From contig CM114271.1 in assembly GCA_050084515.1 (NCBI GenBank), forward strand, positions 24,924,001 to 24,988,000: DNA of 64,000 bases. The letters are read 5' to 3'. Numbering within the stretch: position 1 is the stretch's first letter; each line of letters starts with the position of its first letter. The translations under genes and the position numbers were made by a program. Shown here piece by piece: positions 3,431-54,955 of the stretch. A model generated the notes under the pieces. That model made no database searches. It saw only the letters and a program-made list of their open reading frames with translations, and was not told where the DNA came from. The DNA comes from Blasia pusilla. Lineage: Eukaryota.

Positions 3431-6400
3431 TTGAGCAGTGCATTCTCTGATCCCGCAGAGAATACTAACACAGATTTCTAGTACCTCCGGACGCTCGCGA
3501 CCGTCGCCTCCATTTCACTCTGGAAAAGAAGGGAGCTTTATACGCCCGTGAGGAATGACACGAAAGAGTTTCAGTTTCAAGAAATAAACGGCGAGCCTCC
3601 TGCGATTCTAAACCTCGCATGCTGAATTCCCAGCTGACACGAACGAAAAACCACCATACCGCTTCCTATCTTCGGCTCCCAAAAATAGGACGGTCTCTAC
3701 CTGCGGCTCTTCTTCACCATTCGCCTTTCCACTGCGGATGATTTGCTCCACTCCGCAGCCCAACAGAATCAAACACATAAGCATCCCCGCAATATTCACG
3801 AAGTGCCCAGCTTTCGTTCGGGCAAACCCCCCAATCTCCCCATAATCACCTTCTCCGTCCTCCTCAATTCTCCGATAACTCGCCATTTTTCGCTCGCTCT
3901 CCCAATCAATCGCCTTCTTAATCCGCGCAAACCCTCCGCACCTTCAGATGTACTCAACCCCCACGACTCCTCCCTCCGGATCTCTCCCCGTCGCCGATCC
4001 TCGACATCAGCAGTTCTGCAGTGCAACGTCCACAGCCTTGCCCAATTCCCCAACTCGTTCGCGGCCTCGGCTCCTGAAACGAGCGGATCCTCTAAAGGTC
4101 GCCACTGCGTGGCAGCGCCTGTTCTATATAGCACGAATTCACCCAGTTTCTGCGGCGGAATCCTGTCGGCTTCTATTAGCGTGCATATTCTATTGTCCGG
4201 GGATATCCCCTCAACAGGTCTTGTCACGGGATTTCCGACTATCACTTCTCCAGGACGCCTGCCCCACACGTGTCTGCTCCAGAGGGAATCCTGACGTGGA
4301 AGACTCGCACTCCTGGGAGGCCACCGTCGTCGTCTTCCAAATCGGCAGTTTGTAAGATTCGCCGACGCGTCGTGTGACTCCGACGGCGCTCCTCCACTGG
4401 TGCGAGTCTGCGAGATGCGGCAACGGTTATGTTTGTCCCTTGCTCTACTAGTTTGGCGAGACGTCTGTCACAGAGCAAAGTGCTAAATCCGTGGGCTGAT
4501 ATACCCGGCGTCCCACATCCGTCCACAAACGGGTGCCGATTTCGGTCCCGGGATGCTCATCCTGCGCAGGAGAAAACGACGCGTGTTTTCTAGACGACAT
4601 CACGGCGTGTCTGTTATAGGGGTCCGACTTGTGAGTCGGGATTCAGATGGACAGAATATGCGGTTTTTTTTTATACGCATTTTATGCCATTCATTTTAAG
4701 ATATAATTTAACAAATATGGAGTTATTGAAATATGTCATGAAACAAGTATGCGGCTTAAGTAATGTGATTAATATTGTGGAAAATACAAAATGGTTGTAA
4801 TTATAATGATAATGGTAATTGTAAAAGTACAAAACGGCAGGCAATTGGGGTGCAAGAATGTTTGAAAAAATTTTGGGTTTTAAAATTAAATATTATTGAG
4901 GGTGCAAAATTGTAATATGGATATATGATTAAAGTTGAAAACATGTTGGGCTTTTGCATAATGGCTGGTTGGGAGGTGTTTAAATTGGAGAAGAAATGTA
5001 AATGAAAATTTTGTGGGACTAGTGAAATGGATATACTGTAAAGAAAATGCAAAAAGTGACTTTCGACATTACGAATGGATTTAGAAGTGAAATATTGTGG
5101 TTTGAGATTGAGGCTTGTGGAGAATATATGTAAACTATAAAATTTGGAATCGGAAAGTCCAGAATTGTCATTGCAAATAAGTGTAATTAGCACTCAGAAA
5201 GAAAATATGAAGAATGCAAATGACAGGATTTTGTCACTGTTTGAAGGAAAGAACGAAATGAAGAACATAGCTAAGAATACTCAGAAATGAAATTTTCTGT
5301 AAGGTCCTAGGCAGATTTTGAAATTGTTTTGTTTCAACAACATAAAAGAGATAGAAAGCATAAATGATTTGCTCATTTTGAAGTTATTGAAAATGAGCAG
5401 CATGTTAGAACATGCAACTTGATTGAGATAGGCTGGAAATTGATCCTAAAAGACACAATTATACAGTAATACCATGTGCCAAAATTTCTTATGAAAAATG
5501 GACTGAGTTTATGCATATGTCACACAGCTCGGAAGAGTACTCAGTAAAGCAAAGATGCTTGAAGGTTAGAATTGAAGAACTCTAACCTCTATAGTCACGT
5601 AACATTGATTGTAGTACAAGCAAGTGCAATGAAAGTTTGGGACTGGATTCAAATAGTGGGGCAACATCTTTTGCAAAATCAGAAAGTTTTGCCCTGCAAT
5701 CTTTAAGTTGTGTTTTAAGTGCCCCTATCTCAGCAACATTCTGCTGATTATCTTATATTGCATCTTGCAGCAAAGTCTTGAGAACGCCAACTTGAGTTGA
5801 TAAGCTTGAGATGTGGTCTTGAGCAGCATGTAGATCAGGATCAAAGTTTTGGTAGGCATCTAGTAGGTGTGGTGATGACACTTGCTGCTGGTGGTGGAGT
5901 CTTGTATCCAGGTCAACGTTGTGACACAATGCTTGATGAGATGCATTTGGTCTAGCTTGATGAAATGGACCACATTGTGAGGGTCTGCGTGTTCGTAAGT
6001 ATGACCTCTCAAATAACATGAACAAAAAAATATATTAATTCTAAAGGAGGGTAGGAGCAGCATGTTAGAATAGGCAACTTGATTGAGATAGGCTAAAATC
6101 AATTGAATGGAATGTAGAAGAGAAGAAATAAATCTCATATGCAAAGGTTCCAAAAATGGAGTTGAAACATCACTGCAAGTAGACTACATGCATACAGTTA
6201 GAAGAGATATAATATGAATCATAGAAACACAATGAATTAGCATTTGGCAAACTCAACCTATAGGAGCACTCATCTTTTTGAGCCATAGGCTCAATCAAAA
6301 TTAATTTTAAATTATACTTGAAAATTTTGAGAGGTAATGATCATTTCGAGAAGTACACAAGTGTTTTATAAAAATATAGATGTGTCAACCATGCTAGCAT

Positions 6401-9932: not shown

Positions 9933-9936
9933 AACA

Positions 9937-10304
9937 TGTCATGACAATACGGATTAGGTCGTAGAGTATAGTGTGCTAGTAGAGACCATACCTTATGTAG
10001 GGCCGCAATGTCTAGGTAGAGATGCGATTTCATACATAGGGTTGGGGGTTACTCAGTTGAGGGTGACTTTTCCAGTAGGGCCCGCTCTTAGGTTGGAGGA
10101 TATAAGGTGGAGTGTCTTCAAAGAACACTTAGTTCTTTGAGTTGAGCCTGTTGCATTGGGAGTTAGCCTTGGTAGTGAGTAGAGCTCTTGGCTATGGTGT
10201 TTCCCGCAAGCTTCGACCTAGATTCTCCCATCGTGGAGTGGGTTTGGCTCGATTGTATGTGATTCTATACGTGTTTTATGACAGTAGGTATTTCACGGAT
10301 TTCA
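9937..10304 (+). repeat. Terminal repeat A1 (368 bp, TG...CA) of copy A, containing the TATA box
   Basis: Direct repeat of 17900-18267 with the same length; TATAA at 10101. Confidence 0.95.
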
Positions 10305-10315
10305 CTCAAAGAACT
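10305..10315 (+). promoter_or_regulatory. Putative self-priming primer-binding site CTCAAAGAACT
   Basis: Abuts the CA end of A1. It is the exact reverse complement of AGTTCTTTGAG at 10131-10141, 30 nt downstream of the TATA box. No TGG tRNA-type PBS is present. Confidence 0.75.
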
Positions 10316-11604
10316 AACGTAGATCGATGGTAGCTTCGATTGTGGATCAGTAGGATCTGGTTAGGGCTGATTGTGTACTCAGTCGTGGATGTTCGTGGCT
10401 TGTGGCCTATGTTGGAGGTGTGAATCTGGTGCGTGGTTGGTTGGGAAAGAAGCGCCTTGCTGAGAGCTTTCCAACGCGCTTTAGATTCCAATTGAATTCT
10501 GGTCGAAATAGATTCAATTTTGGTCAAGGATTTGTGAAGTAATTGCTGATCGAAATTTCGCGTACTAGCTCAAGGTCTGGCAATGGTGGAGAGCGGATCA
10601 GAGGGGCTCGTTGGTTGGTGACTCGTTCATTGTTGGAGACGCCTATCCCGTTGGGGGCGCCCTGGTTGGAGAGACGTTGAGGCTTCGAGGCAACTCGTGG
10701 TAGCTCGGGGCGAGTGGGCGTGAGAGGCGGAGCAAGGAGCAAGCAAGCAAGCTTGCTTGCTTGGGCGTGAGGCAATTTTTGCAGGATTTGTGATTTGAGT
10801 GTTGCATAACTGGTCACCCATCTTTGGGTTATTCTGCCTGGAAGACGCTTAACTGCTGAGTTCTTAACTATGCCAGTGTACACACTGGCATAGCTCATTT
10901 GGTGTTGTTTGGAGATGTGTTAGGCGCTTTATGCATCTCAGGTTTTTGGTTGATGTACCTCTAGCGCATAGTACGGTGTAGCCTCTCCATGCAGGTGATA
11001 TTTTCAGGTGCTGCGAGTCCGACTAGCACGTCATCGACCCGCCGCGGAGTAGCTATTGCGTTAGAATTGTGTGGTGGGTTCTGTGGATTCAGGGGGCGCC
11101 ACGTTTGGTGGATTGTGTTACCTTGATTTCCATTTGCGATTGGAGGGTTGTCGTTGGACTTCGTGTGTTTGGATCCCCTCCATCGTTGCTTCTTGCTTGT
11201 GCGCCCATTGTTAGGGTTGACGCTGATTTCCAGAGTAGTGTTACTCCTGTGTGCTACCGGTAGTGAGGTGGAGTGATGACCGATGAGACCGTGGGAGGCT
11301 TCTTGTGGTGATGACAAAGGTTAGGTTGCCTACACCCATAGCTAGTAGAGCTAGAATAGTATAGCGACATCGACGTCACTTGGTTACTTAGTGGTGGTAA
11401 TTTGGTGGTGGCGCGGCATTGGCGTTGGTCATCACGGAGCTGTCGGGTGGTCTGGTTGGGGACCGTGGTGGTTTCACATGGAGTGGATTTAGGTATCGGC
11501 TACCTTCTCCACTTCCGACGGTTGATGAAGAGGAGGACGAGGGTGTTCCAAACACCGAGTCTTCTACGTTGTTATCGAGTGTTGCAGCTCCATTGATTTG
11601 GGAC

Positions 11605-13830
11605 ATGGACGGGATATATGGGGCCATGAAGGGCCCACGACGATACTCGGGTGCAGTGGGCACCATTGAGTTGGAGGACTTCATGCAGGAGTTTGATACG
11701 TGGTGTGATATGCAGATGTTGCGGAACGCCACGTTGTTTACACCCTTCTTGGCTTGAAAGGGGTTGTTTCAGCACTTGGAGGGACCACCCATGGATGATT
11801 ACCATGAGTTTAGGAAGGACCATGTTGCTGAGATTGAGGCATGGAGACAATATTGGTCTCTAGGCTATATGTCTATCACCCATGGTGGTATTGGTAGTAG
11901 TGCTCCTACTATGCCAGCCAGCCCAACGTTGAGTGGTACGAGTACGAGCGGGAGTGGGGGTACTAGTGGAGGTACCCATGGAGGTACCAGTGGGGGTACT
12001 AGTGGAGGTACTAGTTCCCCACCATCGTTTAGCCTGGTTGCAGAGTTCTTCAAGAGGTTGAAGAAGAACTATCAGGGAGTGAAGACAGAGAAGTTGATGA
12101 GTCTTCAAGAATTTGAGCGAAAGACTGGTGAGAGTCTTCGTGAGGCATACACTCGTATGCGACGCTTGATTTCGATTACCTAGGGTATGGCGAGGCTCGA
12201 GCGATCCGATTTTGGTATGGGATCTTGGACGAGAGAGTTGCGCCGTAAGGGTGCGTGATGCTACTCTTATGAGTGATGATTCACCCACATTGACCCATGT
12301 GTTTGCTCTATCTGAGAAGATTGAGCTTAACATGCTGAAGGAGAGAGTGGTGACATCCGCATTCAGTAGGAATACAACTACTACTTCTCGTGTTCAGCAA
12401 CCCACCTCACAGTCTCGTAGTAGTAGTGGTGGTAGTAGTAGTGGGAGTCGTGGGGGATACACACGACCTCAGTCAGGTCCTAGAGGGACATTTGCGTAGA
12501 GACCATTGCCTTCATTTGCTGCCCCGCAGCAAGGACAGTCATGTTGGACATGTGGAGGTAATCATGTTAGGAAGTTTTGTCCCCAAGAGGGTGGGAGACG
12601 GACTTTGGAGGATGGACCTCAGTCGGCCCCAACTCAGTGTGATCATTGCGGGAGACCAGGTCATCCTCTAGAGCGTTGCTTTGATCTTCATCCAGAGTTG
12701 AGATCAGGCCGCGACCGTGGTGGAGTAGCTCTGAGAGGACGAGATGGTAGAGGTGGACCAGTGGTTGGAGAGCCTACATTGGCTACCCCTACCACTACGA
12801 CAGAGTCAGCTATGGCTTCCAGGATTGAGCAGTTGGCTACTATGGTTGGTATCCAACATAGATCACGTTTGGGAGCAGGGGCTTCCACCTCTTATGGAGG
12901 GGATGATCTCTCTTATATGGCGAGTGCATCACAGGTTGAGGCATCGGCTGCAGTTATGAGAGGAGCCACTCAAGCGTCAGAGCCACGTGGTGCTCTTGTG
13001 GAGTTGGACCCCAGAGGGGTGAGGTGGGGGCGGGCTAGGCTTCCCGGTCATTCTTGTTGTCTAAGGTGCTTAGGACTCCATCCATGGTTCCTCACGAGCC
13101 TATTGAGCCGCATGTGGGGACTAAGGCATCTACATCGCGTGTAGTAGACACGGATGCAAACATCGATCAAGATATTGCGGATGGCAACCGGTGTTGGGAT
13201 CCCCATTGTTTTGGTCCGAGGCGATGGCTTTAGGAGTTGACTTAGCTCCTGTATTTCAACTAGCAGCCACGTTGTGTGAACGTGGGGGTGTTACTACTAC
13301 ACGTGCTGAGGTGGATGAGGGTGTGCGGTGGAGCGACCCTCTATGTCAGGTGTAGCATTGAGTACCGGTGCTACTTGGCGGCGGCGGCGGCGAAGATGGA
13401 TGCATTACCCGGCCCGGCCAGCCATTGATCGTGAGAGGCTTACACCTGGTGTATGTATGTTGGACAACCAGAGTGGGATATTCCGATTGGTGAGTCCTAC
13501 AAGACAAGTGTATAGACGAGATAGAGTCTTGTTAGACTCTGGTGCCCAACCTTTGATGTTGGGAAAGGCAATATGTATTGGTTTGGGTATTTGGAGGTCA
13601 GAGCTTGAGCCTTGCCCATTCCAAATTCAGACATCACTTGGAGGTGCCAATGATAGGTCTCATTTCATGACACGGGGGAAGTTTTCTGTATAGTTGAGAC
13701 CAGATGATGCGATTGATAGCTCCAGGTTGGGAGTACCTGCAGTGGTCACATCGGCCAAGTCATATGATGTACTAGTTGGAGGAGCAATATTGTACCCGAT
13801 GGGTTTTTAGATGGACTACTGGATTGAGAC
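11605..13830 (+). pseudogene. Copy A gag (two CCHC zinc knuckles) and aspartic protease
   Basis: ELEDFMQEFDTWCD; CWTCGGNHVRKFC and CDHCGRPGHPLERC; VLLDSGAQ; several stops and frameshifts. Confidence 0.9.
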
Positions 13831-14262
13831 AGCGTCTTATAGACCTGGTTGGCAGTCTGGGGATGGACGTATGAGCGAGGTTCCTGTGAGATTTATTTAT
13901 TGGGCTCAACCAGGAGGGTCTTCCCCAACAGTGTTAGCATATGTCGTTGGTTTTAGTGGAGAAGTCACTTGGCCAGGAGACTTTTTGGAGGGTACCATTT
14001 CTGCTATGGATTCTCCTGTGCATGAGGAGGTAGAGGAGGTCCCTAGTATTGCAGCAATGGTATCCTCATCGTTGGATGTGCCACTTTGGAGTTCAGGCGG
14101 TGCACTACGGCAAGAGGCTGGTCGCCTAGTGCAGGAGGCTTGGTGTGAGGGTGTTATACCTCACGAGGAAGAGGAGGCCCCACGGCGGACTTTTACTTCT
14201 GGTCCACTTGGGTTATCCCCTTTGGATACTACACCATTGTATGGCAGTATCCACCGGAGGGC

Positions 14263-14620
14263 ATTTGTGTGTTAGATCTCTTTGGTGGGATTAGCATTGG
14301 TTTGGTTGCAGTGTTGCAGGTCGGTATTCCTGTGCGGAGATAAGTGTATGTGGAGCGATATGAGACGGCCCAGAGAGTCTCATCCTGACATATTGGTTAG
14401 TTGATGCGGAGATATCATGAGTTGTTGCCGCCATCAGCTATTCGTGGGTACCAGTGTGCTTTGCCGTCACACATTGCATTGTTGGGGGCGCAAGACCTTG
14501 AGAGGGTTGGTCCTGTGGATTTGGTGATTGCTGGATGGCCATGTCAGGGTCATACACGTGCTGGTCGTGGTGAGGGATTACACGACCCTAGGTCTCGATT
14601 GTTTTGGGAGATGTTACGGG
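14263..14620 (+). pseudogene. Copy A DNMT3-like C5 cytosine methyltransferase, N-terminal half (motifs I-V)
   Basis: ICVLDLFGGISIG (motif I), YVE (motif II) and GPVDLVIAGWPCQG (catalytic motif IV); truncated at TTACGGG. Confidence 0.9.
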
Positions 14621-17600
14621 AGGTGAGAAACGACGCTTGACACAGTTCCTACGTGCTTATAGGAGTTTTTTTGCCTTTAGCATGAAGGATTTGGGTGCTC
14701 TGGTTGGACCCGGTATACGGATTGATTTGGCTAGTGATATGCCAATCTTCCGTCGTCCCTACCGATATAGTCATATGGAGAGGCACCTGATTCAGAGTAG
14801 GACGTTGGACCTTTTGGAGGCTGGATTAGTAGAGATGTTGCATGGAGAGTATGCATCGACGCCCTTTGTCATGCTCTGCTAAAAGGATATGCATGGCAAC
14901 TACACGGATAGGCGGATGTGTGGAGATTACCGTCCTATCAATCGGCAAACCAAGGCCAATAGGTATGCCATGCCTACACTTGAGGAGATCTTTGATGTGG
15001 TGGGACAGGCAAAGATTTTCAATACTTTGGATCTTCGGGCAGGATACCATCAATTGCCGATTCGGAAGAGTGACAAGGCCAAGACAACATTTTGGGGTGT
15101 CAACTCTCATGGTAAGGATTGTTTGTACCAGTGGAAATTCTTACCCTTTGGGTTGAAGAATGCACATGCTGAGTTTCAGAGAGTGATGGACAGGATCCTA
15201 GCAGGATTGGATTTTGTTCGGTGTTACATTGATGATATCTTGGTGTTCAGTAACACGGTGGAGGAGCATCAGATACATTTGCAGATGGTGTTTGAGCGGT
15301 TGAAAGCTCATGGTCTACGTTTGTATCCAGGAAAGTGTAAGTTCTTCCATGAGGATGTTGAGTACTTGGGTCATGTGATCTATCCAGGTGGTTTGGGAGT
15401 TCAGCAAGCAAAGATGGAGGCTATTGCACTTATTCCGCGTCCGGTAGATGTGAGTAGAGTTCGAGCATTCATGGGATTGGCGAACTACTATCGGAGGTAT
15501 GTGAAGGGATTTAGTGCTATGGCAAAGCCTTTGAACCAATTGCTGAAATCAGATCAAGAGTGGCACTTTGGGAGATGATCGGAGAGAGAGCTTTTGTGGA
15601 GCTTAAGGCCCAGTTGGTGGCGGCGCCTATCTTGAGGAGACCTATCGAGGGCGCCCATTTCAGATTACACACGATTGGAGTAGGTTGGGACTTGGAGCGG
15701 TGTTGACACAACATGATGATGAGCACATGGAGTTTGTGGTGGCCTATGCTAGTCGTTCGAATAATGCAATGGAGTCGCGCTATAGTTCATATGAGGGAGA
15801 GTGCTTGGCAAGAGTGTGTCTTTGTGGCACACTTTAGGTGTTACTTGTTTGGCACACGATTTACCCTTGTTACTAATCACCCGGCCGCTCAAGTGGTTGA
15901 TGGAGTCGGACAAGCTTACAGGGAAGCTTGCACGGTGGGCTCTTATCTTACAAGAGTATGACTTCAGGTGGTACATAGACCTGGAGTTGCCAACCTTGAT
16001 CTTTGATGGGTTGAGTAGGAACCCATGTACTAGCCAAGAGGATACAACTGGGGCTAGATGGCATGGCGAGGTTGATGAGGAGATGGTGCTAGGTTGGCAT
16101 GCATCCGCCTTTTTATGTTGGTTAGGGGTGGACTCTAGTATGGAGGACCACATGATATCTTACTCTAGTCGAGGGTAGATGGCACCTTGAGATCCTAAGG
16201 TTGGAGATGGTGGTACGGATCAGCGTGATATTCATGATGATGCATTGGTGTTGGAGTTCCTACGGACCAGTAGGGTGCCAGGCATAGTGAGTGCCAAGGA
16301 GCGAGACCGTGTTCTTCAACGTGCTAAGAGGTATCGATTGGAGGGAACACATATTCTCCGTGTGTGGGAGGATGGTAGAGTACGAGTAGTGCCGCATTTG
16401 GCTCATAGAGAGCGCATTGTGCGACATGCCCATGAGGAGTTGGGACATTTTGGGGTAAAGCGTACGTATAGCTTACTCCTTGGTCAGTATTGGTGGCGTG
16501 GCATGCATACTCAAGTGCAGCAGTTGGTGTCATGTTGTATGGTTTGTGACCGGGTGAGGGCATCATTCAATGCCTCTACACCACAGTTACACCCTTGCAT
16601 ATTATGGGGTTGGAGTTCTTGTTGGAGTGTGAACTTTCGGGACCGTTACCGTTGGTATGCGACATCATCGATATGTGTTGGTGATGGTGGAGCACTTCTC
16701 CAAGTGGATTGAGTTGGTGGCATTACCGGACAAGGCAAGTGAGGGAACGGCGTATGCGTTTCTTGATAGAGTGCTTAGTCATTTTGGTGCACCAGCTGAA
16801 GTCTTTGACCGACCGAGTCTGAGTTTGGGGTGAGTTTCAGGTCTTGTGTGACAAGGCGTTGATTGATCATCGGACCACATCTCGAGATCATCTAGAGGCG
16901 GATGGTTTGGCTGGCGTGTGGTTCAAGACGGTGAAGAGGGCATTGCGCAAGTATGGCCTACAGAAGGGGCATCTTGGAGACTGGGATATTGAGTTGCCAT
17001 GGTTAGCCATGGGGTATAGGTTCAGTCGCCAAGCATCCTTGGCTTCCTTCTCACCTTATTTTTTGTTATACAGCCGAGATCCAGACTTGCCAACAGCAAT
17101 TCGTCGCGAGTCTAGTGAGGTGGTGAACCTTGATGACCCAGAGATGTGGATGAGAGTGTGTTCTCAGCGGGCAGAGCTCTTTCGGAGAGTTATGCCAACA
17201 GCCTTTGAGAATCTTGCCATTGCTCAACACACGGATACGTTGCGGTATGCAACCATTTGGGATGGAGGTTATCGACCATCGATTCGTAGGTTCCATGTGG
17301 GGGACTATGTCTATTTGCAGCAGATTGCACCGACAATGTTGGATGTGACGGTAGGCCACACTATTTTACGAGTGCGCAAGGTGTTAGCTTCTGGAGTTCT
17401 AATGTTGGAGGGTCGTGATGGAGTTGTTTGGAAGGACCATGTGTGTAATTCTGCGCCATGTCATCTTCCAAATGTGGATGGTACTGTTGACCCAAGCTTA
17501 GCCATGATACGTGCTAGCTTGAGGTGCATGTTGTGGGTGCTTTGTGTAACGCGGCCCGTATGTTGGTGTGTGATCGGTGTTCTAGGGGTTGGCACATGAT

Positions 17601-17663
17601 GTGTTTGACTCCACGTATGGATGTTGTTCCTATTGGAAGGTGGGTTTGTCCTCGATGTACTTA
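14621..17663 (+). pseudogene. Copy A reverse transcriptase, RNase H, integrase and C-terminal PHD finger
   Basis: RMCGDYRPIN, LDLRAGYHQ, LPFGLKNA, YIDD; EFVVAYAS; HAHEELGHFG...CMVC; frameshifted PHD at the end. Confidence 0.93.
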
Positions 17664-17779
17664 GGAGAGGTAGATGGGGCAACCTAGCACTCGGCCTTCT
17701 GATTCGGGCACCCAAGAAGGTGTATAGCATGTAGTAGATGTATAGGGCTACCTGGGAGTTAGAGGGACCTAACCGCCAG

Positions 17780-17791
17780 TTAGGGGGGCGA
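17780..17791 (+). promoter_or_regulatory. Putative polypurine tract (TTAGGGGGGCGA) immediately before repeat B1
   Basis: Purine-rich run directly upstream of B. The same position is seen in copies B and C and in the older relative. Confidence 0.65.
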
Positions 17792-18373
17792 GTTGTGGTA
17801 CACTTGTGTTTTTGGATGCTCTTGTCTTTGTTATGTATGTATGTGAGTATGGTATGTCAGCGATATATATTGTATGACGATGTGGATTCGCACGACAACT
17901 GTCATGACAATACGGATTAGGTCGTAGAGTATAGAGTGCTAGTAGAGGCCATACCTTATGTAGGGTCGTAGTGTCTAGGTAGAGATGCGATTTCATACAT
18001 AGGGTTGGGGGTTACTAAGTTGAGGGTGACTTTTCCAGTATGGCCCGCTCTTAGGTTGGAGGATATAAGGTGGAGTGCACTCAAAGAACTGTTAGTTCTT
18101 TGAGTTGAGCCTGTTGCGTTGGGAGTTAGCCTTGGTAGTGAGTAGAGCTCTTGGCTATGGTATTTCCCGCAAGCTTCGACCTAGATTCTCCCATCGTGGA
18201 GTGGGTTTGGCTCGATTGTATATGATTCTATACGTGTTTTATGACAGTAGGTCTTTCACGGATTTCAGTTGTGGTACACTTGTGTTTGTGGATGCTCTTG
18301 TCTATGTTATGTATGTATGTGAGTATGGTATGTCAGCGATGTATGTTGTATGACAATGTGGATTCGCACGACA
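17792..18373 (+). repeat. 3' terminal array B1 (17792-17897) - AC spacer - A2 (17900-18267) - B2 (18268-18373)
   Basis: Two 106-bp B copies flank a 368-bp A copy. Junctions read CACGACA-AC-TGTCATG and GATTTCA|GTTGTGG. Confidence 0.95.
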
Positions 18374-18377
18374 AGCA

Positions 18378-21300
18378 TGCGTCATTGGAGTGGTAAGTTG
18401 AAAGGTTAAGATATCACTGAAGAATTTTGAGGAGATGATGTGACTACTCCTATAGAATTCAGAGCATTTATGATTACAAACTGGTGGTATTTGGCAAAAG
18501 TCTCCAACCATGAGTACTAATTTTCCACCAAAAGGTGTTAGAGATGATGAAGATGATATTTCATTTAAACTCATGCCCACAATTTGAAGTAACTTGGGTG
18601 TGAGCATTGAGCACTCATCTATAACTATAACTTGAGATGTCTTAAGTTTCAGAAAATTTTCAGACGCAACATGCATACATGGAAGATCACATTTTATTGG
18701 TATTGCAAATGCTGAATGGGTAGTGGTAGCTTCACGGTGAAGTCTAACAGCAGCAATATCTGTTGTCGCAATTAAAATTGGAGATATCTAATTGTACTTC
18801 CAGTTACTATACATGAATGAAATAAAAAATGTTTTCCCACATCCAGGTGGTCCTTTGAGTAGTACTAGACCATATTTCATGTCTTTGAAGAGATTGAAAA
18901 GTTCGGATAGTTCGTTGTTCAGTTCAACTAGGTCAAGTGCAGTAGGATATGCTATGTCTAATGTTGGTTCATCGGCTTTGGAGGAGATTGATCACACATA
19001 AGTACTGCAATATTAACCTGTAGTTCAAGTTGTATAAGATCATGGACTTTTTCAAGGATCTCTCCTACATGGACCTGACTCCAAAGATTTTTTAATGTAT
19101 GTGCTTTAACTAGTGTGTAAACATCCTCAATGGATTTAATTATTTGCCTGAAAATACATTCATGGATATAAGTCCACTTGATTGAAGTTGAGGAAAATAT
19201 AGTACTTTCAGAACCGAACGAAACACTGGAAAGAAGAACTACATAAAAGAACTAATTGGTTTGGTGAAGTGGATGAAATTCAGTAAACCTAACTACACAA
19301 GTAGTTATTGAGACTATATTACCTAAGTTGTCTAAGCCGATGTAAGGTGAAATCTGTTTCGGATAATTTTTTAGCAACTGATTATTGCTCTAGTAGTCTA
19401 TGAAGGTCAGATCCTCAAAGACTTGTGGTCTATTGCAATGTAGGACAACTAGATGAATACATGGAACCAAAGCATTTTTATACAAACTCCTTTTATGGGG
19501 AGGATTACAGTCAATGTATGTGACAAATTGAGATCTATAGATTATGGGTATCTGCATGGATGTTATTGCACCTTTTGTGGAAGACACGGACCGTTGAGGA
19601 CCATTCCATAAATCAACTTTAGTTTTATCTCATCTATTCCCCCAAGTTCTAGGCATTTGGCAGGATTCAGTATCAATATCCAAGGATCCCTTGGGCTCAA
19701 ATTTAAGGACATACTTTAGTAAATAAAAGCTCTAGTCAGTATTGGTGACATGATGTATGTTCATATGAGCTCCCCAGAGAAGTAATATGAGTGGATGGTA
19801 TGCAATCACATTGCGATGTTGAGGTGGTGACCTATAGTAATTCCACTTCATTGTCAAAGGATCAATGAGGGGAACTAGTTCAAGGTTAATAGGTGATGGA
19901 AATCCAAGACGACAATGTGACTTTGCTTAGTTTTTACGTACAACACAAACACCATCTTTGCACCTATGTAAAAAAAAAAATCAATACATATGTTAGCAAA
20001 GTATCAAATGTCTTCTTTTGAGACTGTGAAAAATTGTGGCGTCGCATATTAATAGTTTCTGTGGGTATGTATGTACATATCTCTGATGTTACTTGGTCTA
20101 CATCTGAAGGGTCCAGCCATAAAATCATGTGACAATGAAGACTATCCCTACCCTGCAACTCATAACGTAGCAAGCAATTAACCACCCTCCCAAGTAAGTG
20201 TGGTCCATTGAAAATAAATTGGTTGAGGAAAGAATTCGACCTAGTGTGAAACAATTGTGCACATTCATCAAGGGCATCTCGCCTTGTGAAAATGGGGTTT
20301 AAGTTCTTGAGCAAGGTTTCCATATTTGTGATCTCAGGCCACCGTGTTTCTGAGATTTCATTTAGGATTTCATTAGAGGTCAAAGTGAGGAAAAAGTGTG
20401 GCATCCCCCCATTTATGGACCATAGCTTTTAAGTCTTTCAAATGCCTTCTATGCCAAGCTGGGCTACTTGGTAATTGGGAACTAATGGAGTATTTAGAGA
20501 GATGAGCATACAAATCTCCTTCACGTACATCAAGTTTCTGTTTTCTTAGGTTGTCTAATTCTCTGTTTAGTATGAATGTCCTACTATTTGATCATAGAGA
20601 AATGGATTGACAAAGCTGGTGCATTAATAAGGCATAAGGTGGATACAAGGAGAATTGACTGAATAACCGTTTAGAACAATTGCGCAAATACTCGACAAAC
20701 ATAGAGTGGCCAGTGAAATAACCCCGAAGGTAAGGAAAAAAATTTGAAAGAGTCATGTTTCTATAGTAAGAAGTGGGTCTAGAGAATTTCCTTTGTTATG
20801 GGTAAGTAAACTTTCACGTACGCATGCATATGCACGCAATGTTATACTACCATTGTCAAAGATGTCAGTGGATCTACGCCTCCTAGCAGGTAATGTATAG
20901 GCTACATCTTGCAGAATATTGAGTTCAGGTTGGTAAGGATCACAACTCATACTAAAGGTTACTTGACCTTTTTCTTGAGATTGTTTTATTATGCTATTGA
21001 TTGATGTAGAAGGAAGTATGACAAGGCCAGTGGAAGGATTAGGTAGCTCTACTAAGGCTTTGTAGTGTTTGTATAAGCTATTTATTTGAAGATATATTCA
21101 TTACAAACATATCCTTCACATTTTTTGAAAGTGAACTTCCACTTGGGGATAGAGGATTGCTACAATTAAACGCGACAAGAGGAGAGTCTAGAACAGATGT
21201 CATATTGAAAAAGCCTTTATGAAACCCATTGAACTTCTCCTCAATGCTTATCATGGAGTCTACTATAGATGAAAGTTGCAGTTCAAGGGGATTAACACTT

Positions 21301-24800: not shown

Positions 24801-26632
24801 ACTCTCTCTTTGTAGGTAATCCAAGTCTTTCACCATGAGAGTGGGTTTGGTTTGACATAAGAGAATGAGAGAAAATATGTTAGATTTGATTTTTCAATTC
24901 ACATAGAGAGAATGAAAGGAACCTTATGAGAGATTTGTTGGGAGAGCTACTCTACTATTTGGGAGAGTTAGAGTAAGATCTTTATTATCTTCTCATTGAT
25001 TTTACAAGCTAGGGATCATTGTCCGTAGCGCCTATGAGTGCCCTTATAAGTCTAAGTTTGCTCTTTTTTAAATTAATTAAGTGGATTTTTCTAGTAGAAC
25101 CAATGCATGTAAAATCATTGCCAAAAACTTTGGTGCTTCCCCTTCAAAATTTTGAATTAGGTTTCCGAATCAAAAGTGTGTTGGGAATTCTTTATTAAAC
25201 TCCCCAAGTGTGATAGTCAATAAATAACCTTGCTATTGTCCAAAGCACTCTCCTCACAAAAGGTTTTGGGAACAGCGCTGCTATATACAAGGCGATTGGA
25301 ACTCTCTCCAAGCCCATCAAAACTCATATTACGAGCTACATTGAGGTCAATCAAAGTACCTCTTGGGTCCTCAAAAGTCTCCTCCCCCTACTAGACTCGC
25401 CCTTTGTTTTCATTTTCTTCATGTATCTCCTTTTTGGTCAGCCAATTTCTTTTCTGTCCATCCAAAGAAGATAGTAGGCCTCTCATGCTTCTCAACAATC
25501 CAGCATGAAAGTGTTGGTATGATAACTCTTGTTGTGGTAGAACCACTCCTTGCTCTCCTCCATGTGATCGAGGAGATTATGGCTGATGTTCATGTCGAGG
25601 ATATAAGCCCATACTTCCAAAGTTTGGTAGAATATGAACCCTTAGTAATTTTGACTACATCGATGGGGATATTTCATCTTGTGCTCTCGATCTCTTATCT
25701 CTTCTTGAAGACCCGTCCTCCACATTGCCATAATGAACCTCCATGACCTTCATCAACTCTCCGACTTTGAGCTTGACAAATACCTTGCTCACTAACTTCC
25801 TTTTGTTTGGCAAGAGGTCTTCATAACTTGCAAGGACATTGAACAAGTCCCAATCCTTCTTCTACTCTGTTCTCCCACTTTCCTTGAAAAATCACCAAAC
25901 GTACAATCCGACCACTTGAGCCGCAACTTCTTGAATTCTATGTTTATGACAGATTTTTGGTCACATTGTGGTGGTAATAAAAATCCCATCACCATACACT
26001 CAATGAGCTTATTATGTACATGATCTTAATCCTGGATTTTTATTATCTACACCTAATATTCTTGCATTTGCTCTTATATATGCAATAATACACTCTAGGC
26101 TTTTACGATTAGAGTGGTTTGGAGCTAATATCCACTTTCAAATCCTTTCCAAATAAGTCCATTTAACATTCACGTAGCATCCTCGACAATGATGTTGTAT
26201 GTCACATAGTTCAATTTTTTCACAATCATTCTTATGGCATAGATTTTTATGGCTATGCTAAAAGGAAGATTCTTAGGTCATGTTGTCAACTCCGACCAGT
26301 GCTATGTATCCATCATGATTTTTTTGTTCATGGTTGGGGCCACCATCTCTAAGGCAAGACAAAGCACACATCATCCCATAAAGCATTTCCCCAATCTCCA
26401 ACCCCAATATATGGCTCAATGTTGGATCCAAAATGGATGAAAGTGTTCCTAGCATGAAGATCGGTATAAAAAAATTCACGCTTGTGGACAATCTCCATGG
26501 TAACAAGCAGGGCAACTACAAGTTGTCAGACATTTGATGCTATCCATCGCTACACATTTGATCTTCTGCAACTCTGCTAAACTTACCCTCCATTCTTCAA
26601 TGTATGGCACACTCGTATCCAATTTTCAAGGT

Positions 26633-29600
26633 TTTTGTACGCATACAGATCGCTACCCAACCCACATCATTGGTCACTTCTACACACCACTTAACACCCA
26701 TCTTCCCCACACTTGAGTCGATCCATCCATAAACCAAAAAAACACACATATATACATTGAGATCCCACAAAAAAAATTAGAGTAAAAATAATACATCCTG
26801 CCTAAAACTCCACTCTTGAATCTACATTGGCATATGGAGCCTCATCCATCCTCTTCCATCAGGGAATTTTGGACGCTAGAACCCTGGTCCTATCTCACAC
26901 ACGAGAAAGAGAGGTGCTCCAACGGCCCAACATGAGAAAGATGGATTGGGAAAGCCATCTCTCACCCTTATATAGGAATGGGAAGAACCAAAAGGCTCTT
27001 CCCCTAAAAATAGCAATCCTCTTGGTAATTTACGCGCACAAATTACCATGGGCGAGTGAACTACTCAACGAGTCACCCGATTGTGAAAGACCCAAATAGG
27101 ATTTTTTTTGGAAACGACATTCCTCATATAACAGACTATCCTCAACCTCATTGGACAACTCAAGGACAAAGTTACATTGAAGATAGTCTGTTGGCTCTCT
27201 ATGACATCGCTACGATAGATCTCTACCTATCAGCGACTACGATGTGACAATTATCGTGCGTGTGCATATCACTACACAACCCACATTGTTGGTCATATCT
27301 ACACATCACACAACATTGATCTTCCCAACGCACGGGTCAATCCATCCATAAACCAAACAAACTCTCACATATACAACGAGACCCCACATGCACAACCGCC
27401 CCTCTAATTGGAAGTTGGATCCCCCTAACTCCAAATAGTAAACACCTATGAACCTGACATGATCTACTATCCTATACACATCTAGCACCATCAATGTCGT
27501 CATCCCCGCAACACTACAACACTGCAAATACCTGCCGTGTTGATCCCTCCGAAGACCAAACCTGCTCCAAACGCTGCCACATAACAAGTATGGTACCCAA
27601 ATATTTGAAGTCTCCATCCCAAGAGCACGAACGTCACATGACTCTATCTCCTCCAAGACACACGCACTACTCCACGCCTGCCTCACGAGCTCCTTTGTAC
27701 CACAAGGCTCGTACCTAACAACGATAAAGAAAAATCTATACCATGGGAAGAGACACCCACCTTGGCATGTCTCTCCATGGGACTATCCGCTATGGGAATG
27801 TCTTCCATATGTATGCTCCTCTCCCCAAACTCTCCTAATCAACTAACACCACTTGTGAATGCTGCCAATGTAGTCACCGTATCCTCACGTGGTCGACCAC
27901 CACTATCCCATGCAAATTGCACTGGTGGATGGCTCACTTGTCCATCACCTGATCGCCACCCTGGCCAATAAGAAACCATCTCCTCCCAGAAATCCAAGAT
28001 AAAACCAAGGGGTTACAACACGGTACTCCCTACCAACACATCATACAACTCTATCGATGTCATAATTGCTCGAGTGCGCACCATCACACTATCTGTCTCA
28101 TGCTCTGGCTGGAGTCTAACCACCAACTCATGTCAAGTCATGTATTGCATGGGTGATACGCCCCCAATAGAGGTCTGTATCTAAAAGGGACAACATTTGA
28201 TGTTGCCTTTCTGTAATCCCAACACTTAACATGCAGCCTTCCCTAACAACAAGGGCTACGCTCTTGAATCAAGTATGACGCGTTTAGGGTGGTACACTCT
28301 GCCTATGCGACTAACCAAGCAAAACACTCCAGCTTGATTATCCAAAAACACCACATCAGGTGTGATCATGGATCGCTCTATTGTTGTCCTAGTTGGCATA
28401 TCTACCAACTTTGTCACCGTAGCATGCTATGACTGAGTGGGGGACGTTCCAAGCACATGCGCCAAGGGCAAGTCCATCACCTCCTCAACTACCTGTGAAC
28501 AAGAGACAGTCACTACCTCTCCAAACTCACAGAATGTGGCGGCCAACCGGAACACCACCGCGCGCTAGCTGGTCTGACTCCCATCTTCGCCAACTCCATG
28601 GCGGAAAACAATGAAGCCTATCTCATCCTAGTGGCCACCTCCAACCACATGGTTGACACTGACTCCATCCGAGTCGACATAAGAATTGTCTCTCCCACTC
28701 CTCGTGATGTGGATGCACTAGTCCCACCCGTGGGCACTACTGGTCGTCGGGGCACCATCAACGGTGTATGAAGTACCTCCAACAACGTGAACGACTAGGG
28801 AACCCTAGCTTGCCACCCATCGGTTCCCTCTTGTGGGTCAATCTCAACCCCACCTCTTGGTGGCTGGGTTACTCTCGGAGCACCCTAGGTCACCACCGTA
28901 GTAGCCTCAACCTGAGCCGCACTACACATAAATCCCATACCACAAGAATCCTCACCCGTGTCGTGGTAAGATGTGGAGGCTTGAGCCACACTAGCTACTC
29001 TCGGCTCCGTGCCTATCCCTAGTTGCATTAGCGTCATGGCAGCAAAACTCTACTCCAAGTGATCCATGCGAGAAAGCGTTGCATCGACTGCACTTCCTCC
29101 ATCTCTTGTGCTTGATGATGGAACTCTACCACCAGGATCATCCACTTCTCAATCTCCACCAACTCTCTCGCTCTCAGGTCCTATGCCTACCTCTAGACGT
29201 ACCTCTCGGCAAAGATCAAAACACCTATCCCTAATGTGACCATTTCGGTGACAATGATCACACTATAACTACGGTGAGGCCATCCGAAGGTGGCTCCTCA
29301 GCAATCGGAGGTGCCCTCAATCCTCTATCATGCTGTGGGCATTCCCTCTGCCTATGTGGCCCACCACACATCCAACAAGCCAAACCTGGTCCCTGTTGGA
29401 TGATATATGTCGGTACGGGTCATTGCCTCATCGGCTCACAATACCCGCCCTACTCTTTGGGCCCATCGGCCCGCTCTTGTGGTACTAGTGCATGTTGGGT
29501 CACTTGTTGGGCTACTCCTACTCGCAAACCCATCGAATCTCTGAAAATCCCGTGGTCACCAACTGCTCCTCACTCATATTGAGCTCTACCCGCTTAGACA

Positions 29601-30670
29601 ACTCGGAGACCATCTTCAATTTGGGCTTCATCATGTGGAGTAACATCGCATCCCAAACTCCCCTCCATAGCTCATGGTCCAACATCTCATACCAATACTG
29701 AACTGAATGCACCTCAGTCACCCCATATGTTGCAATGATCAATCTTTGCATGTGCGTAAATGCCTCTCTTAGACTCTCACCCGATCTCCAATGAAAACCC
29801 TGTAGACTCTTCAGCTTGTCCGTCCGCACGCCTTGATAGCTCCTCCCCAATTGTCGGAAGAACTCCACTGTAGGACTGAAACTTGGTGGCCCTCTACCAC
29901 CAGAGGTCTATGTCACCTCACCACCCTCATTGCCATCCTCTCCATCTAGTCCCCGTGTTGATGGTGTGGGTCTCTCCGTCCTCACTATCCCATTATATGC
30001 CTCGCGGCCACTAGTGGATACATACCCTGGAGCACAATACATCCTCTAGGCATCGATCTCTAGTGAGTGTAGTGATCGAAACTCCATGTAATCATCCATC
30101 GGAGGACCCTCCAAGTGTTGGAACAAACCCTTCCAAGCCATAAAAGGGTTGAACCGCGTTAGGTCTCGTATCTCCTGAAAGTCGCACCATGCATCGAACT
30201 CTTGGATGAAATCGTCTAAGTCAATGGTGCTTACCGCACCTGAGAAACAATGCATGCCCCAATGGCCCATGTCATCCATCTCCTGCCAAGTGACATTGTC
30301 CCTAACTGCGATCTCGTCACTAGACTTGCTGTCTAGTGATGATAATCCAGCTATGGACAGATGTCGAGGTAGCTCCTCACTCCACTCCGTGTCACACCAC
30401 CACTACTGCTCAAACTACCCCATTCTTCCCAACCCTGGAAGAACGGCGTGATGATCACCATGTCTCACCGGCTCAAGCACTCAGACTCATCGAGAGTCTC
30501 CCACACTCCTCACTAGCTCACTTATGCTAATGATAATCCCATAAGGACACACCCAACCTCACGCACACTATGTCCCTTTTGGATTTAGACATTGTTGGAT
30601 ACATCCCAGTTTATCACATGTCAAGTGCGCCTACACATGGCCATGGCTAGCCCCAACATTGTGCTTGACA
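26633..30670 (-). mobile_element. Older diverged relative of the same Gypsy lineage, internally deleted, 5' end not found
   Basis: Gag DLDDFIQEFDAWCD...WKGLFQHLEGPPMDDY; protease VILDS; FGGINT methyltransferase motif I remnant near 27537-27554; B-A-B-like terminal array at about 26633-27396. Confidence 0.8.
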
Positions 30671-30674: not shown

Positions 30675-33600
30675 TGTCGTGCGAATCCACATCGCCATAC
30701 AACATACATCGCTGACATACCATACGCCCATACATACATAACATAGACGAGAGTATCCACAAACGCAAGTGTACCACAACTGAAATGCGTGAAAGACCTC
30801 TTTGTCATAAAACATGTTTACAATCACATACAATCGAGCCAAACCCACTCCACGATGGGAGAATCTAGGTCGAAGCTTGGAAACACCATAGCCAAGAGCT
30901 CTACTCACTACCAAGGCTAACTCCCAAGCAAGAGGCTCAACTCAAAGAATGATCGTTCTTTGAGGGCAAGCCACCTTATATCCTCCAACCTAAGAGCGGG
31001 CCCTACTGGGAAAGTCACCCCCAAGTGAGTAACCCCCAACCCTATGTATGGAACCGCATCTCTACCAAGCCACTACGGTCCTACATAAGGAATGGCCTCT
31101 ACCAAAGACACCATACTCTACGACATAATCCGTATGGTCATGGCGGTGTCGTGCGAATCCACATCGTCATACAACATACATCATTTGACATACCATACGC
31201 CCCCATACATACATAACATAGCGAGTATCCACAAACGCAAGTGTACCACAACTCGCCCCCCTAACTGGCGGTTAGGTCCCTCTAACTCCCAGGTATCCCT
31301 ATACATCTACTACATGCTATACACCTTCTTGGGTGCCCGAATCAGAAGGCCGGGTGCTAGGTTGCCCCATCATTAGTCGCACATCTGTAATCCATATCAT
31401 GCAAAGATCAAGTCATCTACCTCTCCTAAGTACATCGAGGACAAACCCACCTTCCAGTAGGAACAACATCCAAACGTGGAGTCAAACACATCATGTGCCA
31501 ACCCCTAGAACACCGATCACACACCAACATACGGGTGCGTTACCGATACCCACACAACATGCACCTCAAGCTAGCACCTATCATGGCTAAGCTTGGGTCA
31601 ACAATACCATCCACATTTGGAAGATGACATGGCGCACAATTACGCACATGGTCCTTCCAAACAACTCCATCACGACCCTCCAACATGAGAACTCAAAAGC
31701 TAACACCTCACGCACTCGTAAAATAGTGCGACTGCCGTCACATCCAACGTTGTCGGGCAATCTGCTGCAAATAGACATAGTCCCCACATGGAACCTCTGA
31801 ATCGATGGTCGATAACCTCCACCCGAATGGTTGCATACCGCAAGCGTATCCTGTGTTGAGCAATGGCAAGATTCTCAAGGTTGTTGGCATAACTCTCGAA
31901 AAGAGCTCCGCCGTTGAGAACACACCCTCATCCACATCTGGGTCATCAAGGTTCACCACCTCACTAGACTCAAGAATTCTTTCTTTGGCAAGTCGGATCT
32001 CGGCCGTATAATGAGAAAATAAGGTGAGAAGAAGCCAAGGATGCTTGGCGGTGAACCTATACCCCATGGCTAACCATGGCAACTCAATATCCCGGTCTCA
32101 AGATGCCCCTTACTGTAGGCCATACTTGCGCAATGCCCTCTTCACCGTCGAACCACACGCTCAGCCAAACCATCCGCCTCTAGATGATCTCGAGGCGTGG
32201 TCCGATGATCAATCAACGCCTTGTCACACAAGACTGAAACTCACCTGAAACTCTGTACCCTGGTCGGTGAGCACTTCGGTGGTGCACCAAAATGACTAAG
32301 CACTCTATCAAGAAAGCATCGCCGTTCCTCACTTGCCTTGTCGGTAATGCCACCAACTCAATCCACTTGGAGAAGTGCTCCACCATCACCAACACATATC
32401 GATGATGTAAATGCGATCATGATAACGGTCCCCATAAAGTCCACACTCCAACGGTAACCCAACCCCATAATAGGCAAGGGGTGTAATTGTGGTGTAGGGG
32501 CATTAAATGATGCCCTCACCCGGTCACAAACCATACAACGTGACACCAAGCTGCTGCTGCACTGAGTATGCATGCCACGCCACCAATACTAGCCAAGGAG
32601 TAAGCTATCGTCGCTTTACCCCAAAATGTCCCAACTCCTCATGGGCATGTCGCTGTCGCTCTCTCTGAGCCAAATGTGGCACTACTCGTACTCTACCATC
32701 CTCCCCACACGGAGAATATGTGTTCCCTCAATCGATACCTCTTAGCACGTTGAAGAACACGGTCTCGCTCCTTGGCACTCACTATGCTGGCACCCTCTTG
32801 GTCGTAGGAACTCCAACACCAACGCATCATCATGAATATCACGCTGATCCGTACCACCATCTCCAACCTTAGGATCTGAAGGTGGCCATCTACCCTCGAC
32901 TAGAGTAAGATATCATGTGGTCCTCCATACTAGAGTCCACCCCTAACCAACATAAAAAGGCGGATGCATGCCAACTGGCACCATCTCCTCATCAACCCCG
33001 CCATGCCATCTAGCCCGAGTTGTATCCTCTTGGCTAGTACATGGGTTCCTACTCAACCCATCAAGCATCAAGGTTGGCAACTCAGGTCTATGTACCACCT
33101 GGAAGTCATACTCTGTAAGATAAGAGCCCACCGTGCAAGCTTCCTGTAAGCTTGTCCGACTCCATCAACCACTTGAGCGGTTGGTGATCAGTAACAAGGG
33201 TAAAGCGTGTGCCAAACAAGTAACACCTAAAGTGTGCCCACCCACACTCTTGCCAAGCACTCTCCCTCATATGAACTATAAGCGTGACTCATTTGCATTA
33301 TTGAACGACTTGCATAGGCCACCACAAACTCCATGTGCTCATCATCATGTTGTGTCAACACCGCTCCAAGTCCCAACCTACTCCAATCGTGTGTATGGCT
33401 GAAATGGGCGCCCTCGATAGGTCTCCTCAAGATAGGCGCCGCCACCAAGCTGGGCCTTAAGCTCCACAAAAGCTCTCTCGTGATCATCTCCCCCAATGCC
33501 ACTCTTGATCTGATTTCAACAATTGGTTCAAAGGCTTTTTGCCATAGCACTAAATCCCTTCACATACCTCCGATAGTAGTTTGCCAATCCCATGAATGCT

Positions 33601-47600: not shown

Positions 47601-47800
47601 CATACACAAACACAAGTGTACCACAACTCGCCTCCCTAATTGGCGGTTAGGTCCCTCTAACTCCCAGGTATCCCTATACATCTACTACATGCTATACACC
47701 TTCGTGGGTGCACGAATCAGAAGGCCGTGTGCGAGGTTGCCCCATCGTAAGTCACACATCTGTAATCCATATCATGCAATGATCAAGTCATCTACCCCTC

Positions 47801-54800: not shown

Positions 54801-54955
54801 TGTCCGAAATCAATGGAGCTGCAACACTCGATAACAATGTAGAAGACTTGGTGTTTGGAACACCCTCGTTCTCCTCTTCATCAACGGTCGGAAGTGAAAA
54901 AGGTAGCCGATACCTCAATCCACTTCGTGTAAAACCACCACTGTCCGCACCACGG

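Follow-up and report, generated by a model that had tools for sequence, protein, structure and literature searches.

Split, permuted repeats of a Ty3/Gypsy element in Blasia pusilla suggest insertion from cDNA with joined ends

The stretch of DNA analysed here, called the window, comprises 64,000 nucleotides from Blasia pusilla (NCBI GenBank assembly GCA_050084515.1, contig CM114271.1, positions 24,924,001 to 24,988,000 of the forward strand). It contains copies of a long terminal repeat (LTR) retrotransposon with Ty3/Gypsy enzymes, whose repeats are split into two segments, A and B, and arranged in a permuted order. In the textbook account, an LTR retrotransposon inserts as a linear complementary DNA (cDNA) bounded by LTR ends, and LTR circles are dead ends. 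A reading of the sequence alone (the original prediction) had proposed that this element is integrated from a circle opened at an internal junction. Based on the window copies, related metagenome loci and RNA sequencing data, we consider the best explanation overall to be that cDNA with joined ends is cut at internal abutted repeats and inserted in permuted form, a reading to which we assign a probability of about 0.6. The case concerns a large, transcribed plant-side Gypsy lineage whose inserted copies cannot come directly from conventional linear cDNA.

Organisation of the element copies

By direct reading and repeat finding within the window, we identified an 8.4-kb copy (c1) at positions 9937–18373 (+), the 3′ end of which corresponds to positions 17780–18377. 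A second copy (c2), at 30675–40391 (−), shares its layout: A, internal region, polypurine tract (PPT), B, a 2-nt spacer (nn), A and B, with termini TGTCATG...CACGACA. Repeat finding returned three copies each of A (family D1, 91–95% identity) and B (family D7, 93–95%). Two further insertions have shorter forms. Copy c3 (47522–57167, −) consists of A-internal-B only, and a solo A-B unit lies at 58261–58734 (+).

In c1, the first A segment (A1; 368 nt, 9937–10304, +) starts with TGTCATG, ends with GGATTTCA, and contains a TATA-like box, GATATAAGG, as well as a self-primer sequence, TTAGTTCTTTGAG, at A position 193. It is directly followed by the primer-binding site (PBS) CTCAAAGAACTAA (10305–10317, +), the exact reverse complement of A positions 193–205 (13 nt, offset 0). 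A degenerate gag-pol region, delimited by Pfam matches, copy comparison and three-frame translation, spans 10318–17781 (+) and leads into the PPT AGGGGGGCGA (17782–17791, +), directly 5′ of the first B segment. This PPT sits inside a block (17755–17791, with loose ends at both of these positions) that is common to other expressed subfamilies. B1 (106 nt, 17792–17897, +) runs from GTTGTGG to CACGACA, and the spacer AC (17898–17899, +) separates this CACGACA from the abutting TGTCATG of A2 (368 nt, 17900–18267, +); the two spacer bases are absent at the inserted ends. A1 and A2 share 95% identity in a 300-nt comparison. The final segment, B2 (106 nt, 18268–18373, +), is 95% identical to B1 and joins A2 directly at 18267/18268, where GGATTTCA is fused to GTTGTGG. 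The same A/B joint is present in c1, c2 and the solo unit. The segment lengths and both joints had been read correctly in the original prediction, with coordinates within one base.

Three of these insertions are flanked by perfect 4-bp target site duplications (TSDs): c2, with spacer cc, by CATG (40395–40392 and 30674–30671), c3 by TCAT and the solo A-B unit by ACTT. The left flank of c1, AACA (9933–9936, +), matches its partner AGCA (18374–18377) at three of four bases, so the 4-bp TSDs originally described hold in full for the other insertions and only imperfectly for c1. Copy c1 is also a deletion derivative in which approximately 900 bp present in c2 and c3, including much of the DNMT-like region, are missing; the deletion lies at window positions 14614–14620, against c3 element positions 5395–6307.

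Encoded domains and classification

Pfam searches were run on open fragments and on whole frames with X at stops. They matched a C5 DNA methylase upstream of the reverse transcriptase (RT), then RVT_1, RT_RNaseH, Integrase_H2C2, rve and a C-terminal PHD finger. The element thus has the organisation gag-PR-DNMT3-like-RT-RH-IN-PHD, with the DNMT3-like domain followed by RT, RNase H, the H2C2 and DDE integrase (IN) and the PHD finger. In c1 we located RVT_1 at 14913–15380, Integrase_H2C2 at 16401–16562, an rve remnant at approximately 16633–16830 and the PHD finger at approximately 17530–17662 (all +). Copy c3 (−) carries DNA_methylase at 51687–51878, RVT_1, RT_RNaseH at 49524–49829, rve at 48584–48850 and PHD at 47807–47941. 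The same domain set is found in the related locus L029, and the methylase match (PF00145) lies upstream of RT in both c3 (1.1e-8) and L029 (2.6e-7). The PHD finger (PF00628) matches at 3.6e-10 and stands in the place of a chromodomain, for which we obtained no Pfam match in c3 or the window fragments. Among solved structures, the best relatives are the Ty3 RT (8e-45) for RT and DNMT3A (5e-11) for the methylase. The closest named relatives of the IN-PHD region come from Marchantia polymorpha and Calypogeia fissa (80–82% identity), and relatives were also found in Sphagnum fallax. Together with an intron-containing purple acid phosphatase gene at the start of the window, these relatives point to a bryophyte host, most likely a liverwort. 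Conservation of H2C2 and DDE extends to every relative. All window copies, which are full of stops, and all 14 related loci checked carry broken frames.

For c3, neither the three sense frames (E ≤ 1) nor the three antisense frames (E ≤ 0.1) gave a match to a tyrosine recombinase (Phage_integrase, PF00589), and the three sense frames of the related locus L029 gave none at E ≤ 0.1. With rve present and Phage_integrase unmatched in six frames of c3, the original description of a DDE-integrase Gypsy element lacking a tyrosine recombinase is supported. Tyrosine-recombinase elements are not known to make TSDs. The order DIRS and this element have in common the split direct repeats A1-internal-B1-A2-B2; a tyrosine recombinase was not found here, and 4-bp TSDs are present. 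Given these two observations, the element is not a DIRS element. As in Metaviridae, it has the RT-RNase H-integrase order, a Ty3-like RT, short TSDs and TG...CA termini. Two identical bounding LTRs are absent, since the ends are A on one side and B-nn-A-B on the other. It therefore has the enzymatic features of a conventional LTR element and lacks one defining structural feature, the identical terminal repeats. We regard it as probably a bryophyte representative of Gypsy-DNMT3, a streptophyte lineage within Ty3/Gypsy.

Distribution of the layout among related loci

A profile of the IN-PHD region retrieved 80 related metagenome loci with 46–83% identity. The A and B segments of each locus were delimited from its own repeats, and distinct insertions were counted by grouping loci on their 3′ flank. 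An ORF-B-A-B 3′ end (open reading frame, ORF, followed by the repeats) is present in 32 of the 80 loci, representing 23 distinct insertions. In 21 loci the ORF and B are followed by unrelated DNA, giving 18 distinct groups, or 17 after merging L044 and L045, which share a flank. Among the remainder, five show B-A at a contig end or an otherwise odd arrangement, one ends in B at a contig end, and 21 lack a recognisable B (other families or truncated). The whole A1-internal-B1-nn-A2-B2 arrangement is contained in six loci (L006, L028, L061, L065, L069 and L079, of which L061 and L079 share flanks), and the permuted layout occurs in at least three diverged families. These counts bear on the possibility that the true element has conventional A-B LTRs and that the layout reflects a rearranged master copy or a misassembly. 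A-B alone does have TG...CA ends, and a solo A-B unit with a TSD exists, yet the 23 metagenome and two window insertions of at least three families (IN-PHD 46–83% identical) have their own flanks and TSDs, PBS and PPT positions fit B-nn-A rather than A-B, and RNA-seq reads span PPT-B1-AC-A2 continuously, which makes this explanation highly improbable.

The B1/A2 junction follows the pattern CA(C/T)GA(C/T)A-nn-T(G/A)TCA.., with a spacer of exactly 2 nt in all 26 readable loci (approximately 20 of them distinct). The spacer itself varies in sequence (AC, CC, AT, GC, AA or GT) and is missing from the genomic ends of inserted copies. Those ends thus correspond to the internal B-nn-A inverted repeat minus its spacer, as had been predicted.

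Taking the window and related loci together, 12 insertions have both ends visible, and eight of these show a perfect 4-bp TSD (CATG, TCAT, ACTT, AAGG, CATA, ATGT, ACTA and TGTG), where a perfect match has a chance of 1/256 per insertion. Three of four bases match in c1 and L004, and the flanks of L065 and L044 do not match. Copies of the A-internal-B form also carry TSDs (c3, TCAT; L002, ACTA; L040, TGTG). On the 5′ side, B was found upstream of A1 in none of 15 distinct ends (16 loci representing 12 distinct ends by flank, plus c1 to c3). Separately, several independent insertions (L004, L022, L040, L045, L048, L059, L069 and L070) have TGTN or ATGT as the four bases 3′ of the element, which may reflect a target preference resembling the element's own end sequence.

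Priming sites and transcript

A G-run directly precedes B1 in all 29 related loci listed and in both families present in the window. We found no purine run before A, where the preceding bases are the CACGACAnn end of B. All nine elements with an A1 have, beginning 0–2 nt after it, a stretch of 7–14 nt that exactly matches the reverse complement of a site at A positions ~150–197. This pairing covaries between families, with three different sequence pairs (CTCAAAGAACTA../..TAGTTCTTTGAG, AAAATCCAGAAAA/TTTTCTGGATTTT and TCTAGAAAAACT/AGTTTTTCTAGA) and covariation in c2, L006, L061/L079 and L065/L069; the covariation points to self-priming of the Tf1 type. In predicted folds, the pairing of the PBS with the self-primer closes a domain of approximately 170 nt (z −1.85 and −3.05). 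The TATA-like box lies approximately 30 nt upstream of the self-primer sequence in A. Just upstream of the primer, a PBS-like copy, CTCAAAGAAC, forms a local hairpin that is kept in other families and hints at alternative starts or alternative pairings. A candidate PBS of the tRNA type (TGGTAGCTTCGATTG, 26 nt after A) was dropped, as it is not conserved in diverged copies, unlike CTCAAAGAAC directly after A.

Taken together, these sequence features strongly support a minus-strand synthesis that would be self-primed, as in Tf1, at the first base after A, and a plus-strand synthesis that would start at the PPT just before B. The original placement of the PPT before B and the PBS after A stands in every family examined, with the refinement that the PBS is a self-priming site rather than a tRNA site. 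Self-priming is known for Tf1 and sushi elements and predicted for the plant element Tcn1 (PMC6317226). In these elements, the PBS lies against the 5′ repeat and pairs with a sequence of their own R region rather than with a tRNA. The complementarity of the PBS to the element's own 5′ repeat is common to these elements and ours. As described there, they have conventional identical LTRs and a chromodomain, in contrast to the permuted repeats and PHD finger seen here, and the comparison is one of features, not phylogeny.

Transcription was analysed in two raw runs of stranded RNA-seq, X22 and X23, whose species label is that of the best-matching DNA run. Sense RNA depth is 85–280 and unbroken through the internal region, PPT, B1, AC and A2, falls to 30–42 in the last bin of A2, and is 1.5–3.7 in B2, which is almost absent from RNA. 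Transcripts thus enter A2 from B1 and end within A2 or at its end. The collapse of depth at the end of A2 indicates that the transcript holds the B1-nn-A2 junction, and neither the A2/B2 joint nor B2. Transcription starting inside A1 and ending in A2 is strongly supported. Read-through RNA carrying the A2/B2 joint, in the style of the DIRS model, was rejected as the main species based on the depth of 1.5–3.7 in B2 against 30–280 upstream; a rare read-through template is possible. We also observed an RNA joint from 18217 back to 17929 (289 nt back, from A position 318 to A position 30) with 4 and 10 reads in the two runs and a 5-nt overlap, which could be due to a tandem-rearranged copy, a template switch during library preparation, or something else.

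Permutation of the expected cDNA

Given that A contains R and U5, that the PBS follows A and that the PPT precedes B, conventional reverse transcription should give a cDNA of the form [B-nn-A]-internal-[B-nn-A]. The inserted form, A-internal-B-nn-A-B, is a circular permutation of this molecule in which the ends are fused exactly and the opening lies at B-nn-A with loss of nn; this relationship is well supported. At the A/B joint, the PBS-defined cDNA end (the end of A) is fused to the PPT-defined end (the start of B), which agrees with the earlier view of this joint as two reverse-transcription-defined ends brought together. In this element, RT and integrase thus probably define different repeat units.

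The 4-bp TSDs indicate a DDE integrase reaction, and insertion by integrase at the internal abutted-end site is well supported. We hypothesise that the cDNA ends would be joined head to tail before insertion. The joined molecule could be a 2-LTR circle; alternatively, RT could make an open circle or an extension by switching templates from one end to the other. Within the LTR that immediately follows the joint, integrase would then cleave the abutted repeats 3′ of CA on each strand, lose the 2-nt spacer and insert the permuted molecule. Cutting CACGACA-nn-TGTCATG in this way would leave two recessed CA-3′OH ends with 2-nt 5′ overhangs, and concerted insertion with a 4-bp TSD normally starts from such ends. 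Because both ends are needed on one molecule in the right order, the cDNA ends must be joined first. The abutted inverted ends with a short fixed spacer lost on insertion (2 nt, 26 of 26 readable loci) are also features of circle junctions.

The tyrosine-recombinase alternative can be addressed at this point. It holds that a recombinase of the DIRS, PAT or Ngaro type, unrecognised in cis or acting in trans, inserts circular cDNA and that the DDE integrase is not the inserter. PAT-like and Ngaro elements do have split direct repeats in the order A1-internal-B1-A2-B2 (PMC5890265). However, the absence of a Phage_integrase match in c3 and L029 at the thresholds given above, the perfect 4-bp TSDs in 8 of 12 insertions, the TG...CA inverted-repeat ends, and the retention of H2C2 and DDE domains in all relatives leave this alternative close to refuted.

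Nature of the joined-end intermediate

The simplest carrier of joined ends would be a 2-LTR circle. A closed 2-LTR circle has two identical B-nn-A sites, so A-B-nn-A-internal-B copies would be expected as often as A-internal-B-nn-A-B copies. Several observations weigh against our interpretation, and the first concerns this simple circle: none of the 15 distinct 5′ ends shows A-B-nn-A-internal-B, an outcome with a chance of approximately 3e-5 under random site choice. Faster recombination between A segments could erase some such copies, but hardly all. The A/B joint is also near-invariant, with no indel at 18267/18268 among the differences listed for two DNA runs, which is tighter than expected were each joint made by error-prone end joining. 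The A-internal-B form is nearly as common as the full form (17 versus 23 distinct 3′ ends), and its origin is ambiguous. RNA starts cluster at a single site, 18061 (A position 162), with 28 molecules from just one of the two runs. This site is on the TATA-like box and 31 nt 5′ of A position 193, where the self-primer is predicted to begin. Every copy seen is degenerate, so current activity is unproven, and we infer the joined-end intermediate from the inserted product alone. On the other side, we found neither conventional identical LTRs in most copies, nor an encoded tyrosine recombinase, nor plus-strand priming next to A, each of which the original prediction had named as contrary to it.

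In view of the missing A-B-A-internal-B forms, only one of the two identical sites appears to be used. The joined-end intermediate is therefore probably asymmetric, perhaps with a nick or flap at that site, rather than a symmetric closed circle. Thus, of the proposed cutting of circular cDNA at an internal att site, the permutation and the insertion by integrase at an internal site are well supported, and the closed circle in its simple form is disfavoured. In one possible asymmetric route, the plus strand at the A end would switch to the other minus-strand end and copy B, giving an open circle. Such a switch would leave a nick or flap exactly between GACA and nn of the LTR adjoining the joint. 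If the intermediate were linear and had an additional B at its end, the products would be A-internal-B-A-B, A-internal-B and solo A-B, and not A-B-A-internal-B, which fits the classes seen. The A-internal-B and solo A-B forms may come from other end pairings on the same intermediates, or from later B/B and A/A recombination. Among the flank loose ends listed in DNA runs X1 and X2, there was no consensus for forms in which flank joins B or A joins flank.

An apparent by-product is informative about the cDNA. Locus L008 (3242–3878), identical to L010 (1293–1929), contains B-gc-A-PBS (14 nt of PBS) followed by an inverted A (positions 1 to ~180) that ends with CATGACA at the flank. This copy looks like snapped-back plus-strand strong-stop DNA (B-nn-A-PBS) whose inverted A start was used as the right end, and it therefore indicates that plus-strand strong-stop DNA runs B-nn-A-PBS.

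Alternative routes

The alternative that fares best would refine, rather than replace, the insertion of joined-end cDNA cut internally. In this scenario a unit-length molecule, either linear cDNA or a 1-LTR circle, is cut internally, so that A-internal-B would be the usual product and A-internal-B-A-B, arising from joined-end molecules, the rarer, sole replicating form. The near-equal frequency of A-internal-B 3′ ends (17 versus 23 distinct, with c3 in the window) and their TSDs are as this scenario would have them. However, B1/B2 recombination of full elements gives the same copies with the TSD kept, and the sequences do not separate the two origins. We consider the unit-length scenario possible but doubtful.

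A direct linear route appears unlikely. Here RT itself, through unusual priming or additional strand transfers, would produce linear nn-A-internal-B-nn-A-B-nn DNA. Integrase would trim one or two bases per end in its usual manner, and there would be no joined-end intermediate. This would account for the missing A-B-nn-A-internal-B copies (0 of 15 5′ ends) and for the constant 2-nt spacer, which would resemble untrimmed LTR ends. Against it stand the lack of a purine run before A, together with the conserved PPT before B and the covarying PBS right after A, and the composition of the A/B joint from a PBS-defined and a PPT-defined end, as if a complete conventional cDNA came first. Moreover, no homology-guided strand transfer was found that puts B after A. 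Schemes with an extra PPT, primer copying, rolling circle or dimer transfers were worked through on paper and yield B-A LTRs, 1-LTR tandems or hairpins, and never the A/B joint.

Relation to known systems

The original prediction described integration of this kind as not known for Gypsy elements. This was overstated, as the layout of KnitGypsy-Dnmt3 from Klebsormidium nitens, a DIRS-like repeat arrangement with Gypsy domains, was published in 2018 (de Mendoza et al, 2018, Nat Commun 9:1341; PMC5890265, Fig 4c legend), and a 2026 preprint mentions “streptophytes (Gypsy-DNMT3)”. As described in the 2018 paper, KnitGypsy-Dnmt3 and the present element share the Ty3/Gypsy domain set, the DNMT3-like methyltransferase inside pol and the A-coding-B-A-B repeats. 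The present element differs in its bryophyte host and its C-terminal PHD finger, and is likened to KnitGypsy-Dnmt3 by description, not by sequence relatedness. What is new is therefore the bryophyte, PHD-bearing case, as the layout type itself is already published from Klebsormidium. For such Gypsy elements, our literature search, which had supplements outside its scope and covered some sources in part, found no TSDs, ends, 2-nt junction, PBS or PPT positions, RNA ends or mechanism.

The PAT-like and Ngaro elements of the order DIRS share the A1-internal-B1-A2-B2 arrangement, in which the internal B1/A2 junction puts both element ends inside the transcript. Unlike these, the present elements have a DDE integrase, 4-bp TSDs, TG...CA ends and an RT that is closest to Ty3 among solved structures.

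Cleavage of the palindromic junction of 2-LTR circles by integrase has reportedly been seen with HIV-1. Foamy-virus integrase likewise cleaves the palindromic LTR-LTR junction of 2-LTR circles (PMC1180852). The proposed reaction resembles these retroviral cases, as so described, in that a DDE integrase would cut abutted inverted ends (CA..TG) in a joined molecule. It differs in that the palindrome cut in retroviruses is the junction of the cDNA ends and the route is a side route, whereas here the palindrome lies inside the RT-defined LTR and the joined ends stay uncut. In the present elements, the internal-cut route seems to be obligatory.

In the circle junctions of IS3, IS30 and IS256, abutted inverted repeats with a short spacer are the active substrate. 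Integrases of the Gypsy type act as cut-and-paste transposases in Ginger elements (PMC2836005). In both groups, as described, the DDE enzymes resemble integrases and work on ends that lie within longer DNA; unlike the present element, both are DNA transposons without reverse transcription.

The precise anatomy of the element (2-nt spacer, TG...CA repeats, 4-bp TSD, self-priming PBS, PPT before B and an RNA end in A2) makes the question testable, and it bears on the origin of DIRS-type split repeats. In annotation, such elements will be missed or given wrong bounds by LTR finders built around two identical terminal repeats, and classifiers may file them as DIRS. More tentatively, a whole clade of DDE-integrase Ty3/Gypsy elements in streptophytes may replicate obligatorily through head-to-tail cDNA, cutting only the LTR-internal site next to the joint. 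If so, the circle-junction model of retroviral integration, since abandoned, would have a fixed counterpart in nature. The split repeats of DIRS, Ngaro and PAT would then stem from the logic of reverse transcription and joining, not from the tyrosine recombinase, and these elements would be placed near the Gypsy-to-DIRS transition.

Other features of the window

A 5′-truncated copy of a second family, approximately 60% diverged at the nucleotide level and encoding gag/PR, occupies 26632–30404 (−) and directly adjoins the 3′ end of c2. It has its own PPT-B′-at-A′-B′ terminus, with a conserved PPT block at 27432–27391, B1′ at 27388–27251, the spacer “at”, an A2′ of approximately 481 nt, and B2′ at 26769–26632 (all −). 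No A1′ of this family was found in the 64-kb window.

In the 5′ region of c3, approximately 420 bp (54952–55372) that are absent from c1 are 85% identical to 44288–44700 (+), and this segment is probably a small unrelated repeat inserted there. Copies c2 and c3 contain a tandem unit of approximately 114–131 nt in their 5′ untranslated regions (family D8; 39266–39379, 55913–56026 and 56044–56157), which is absent or reduced in c1. Beside the 3′ end of c1, a 161-aa open frame (18302–18787, −) contains a P-loop-like motif, as judged by eye. The first ~4000 positions of the window (−) contain a host purple acid phosphatase gene with introns, with matches to Pur_ac_phosph_N, Metallophos and Metallophos_C.

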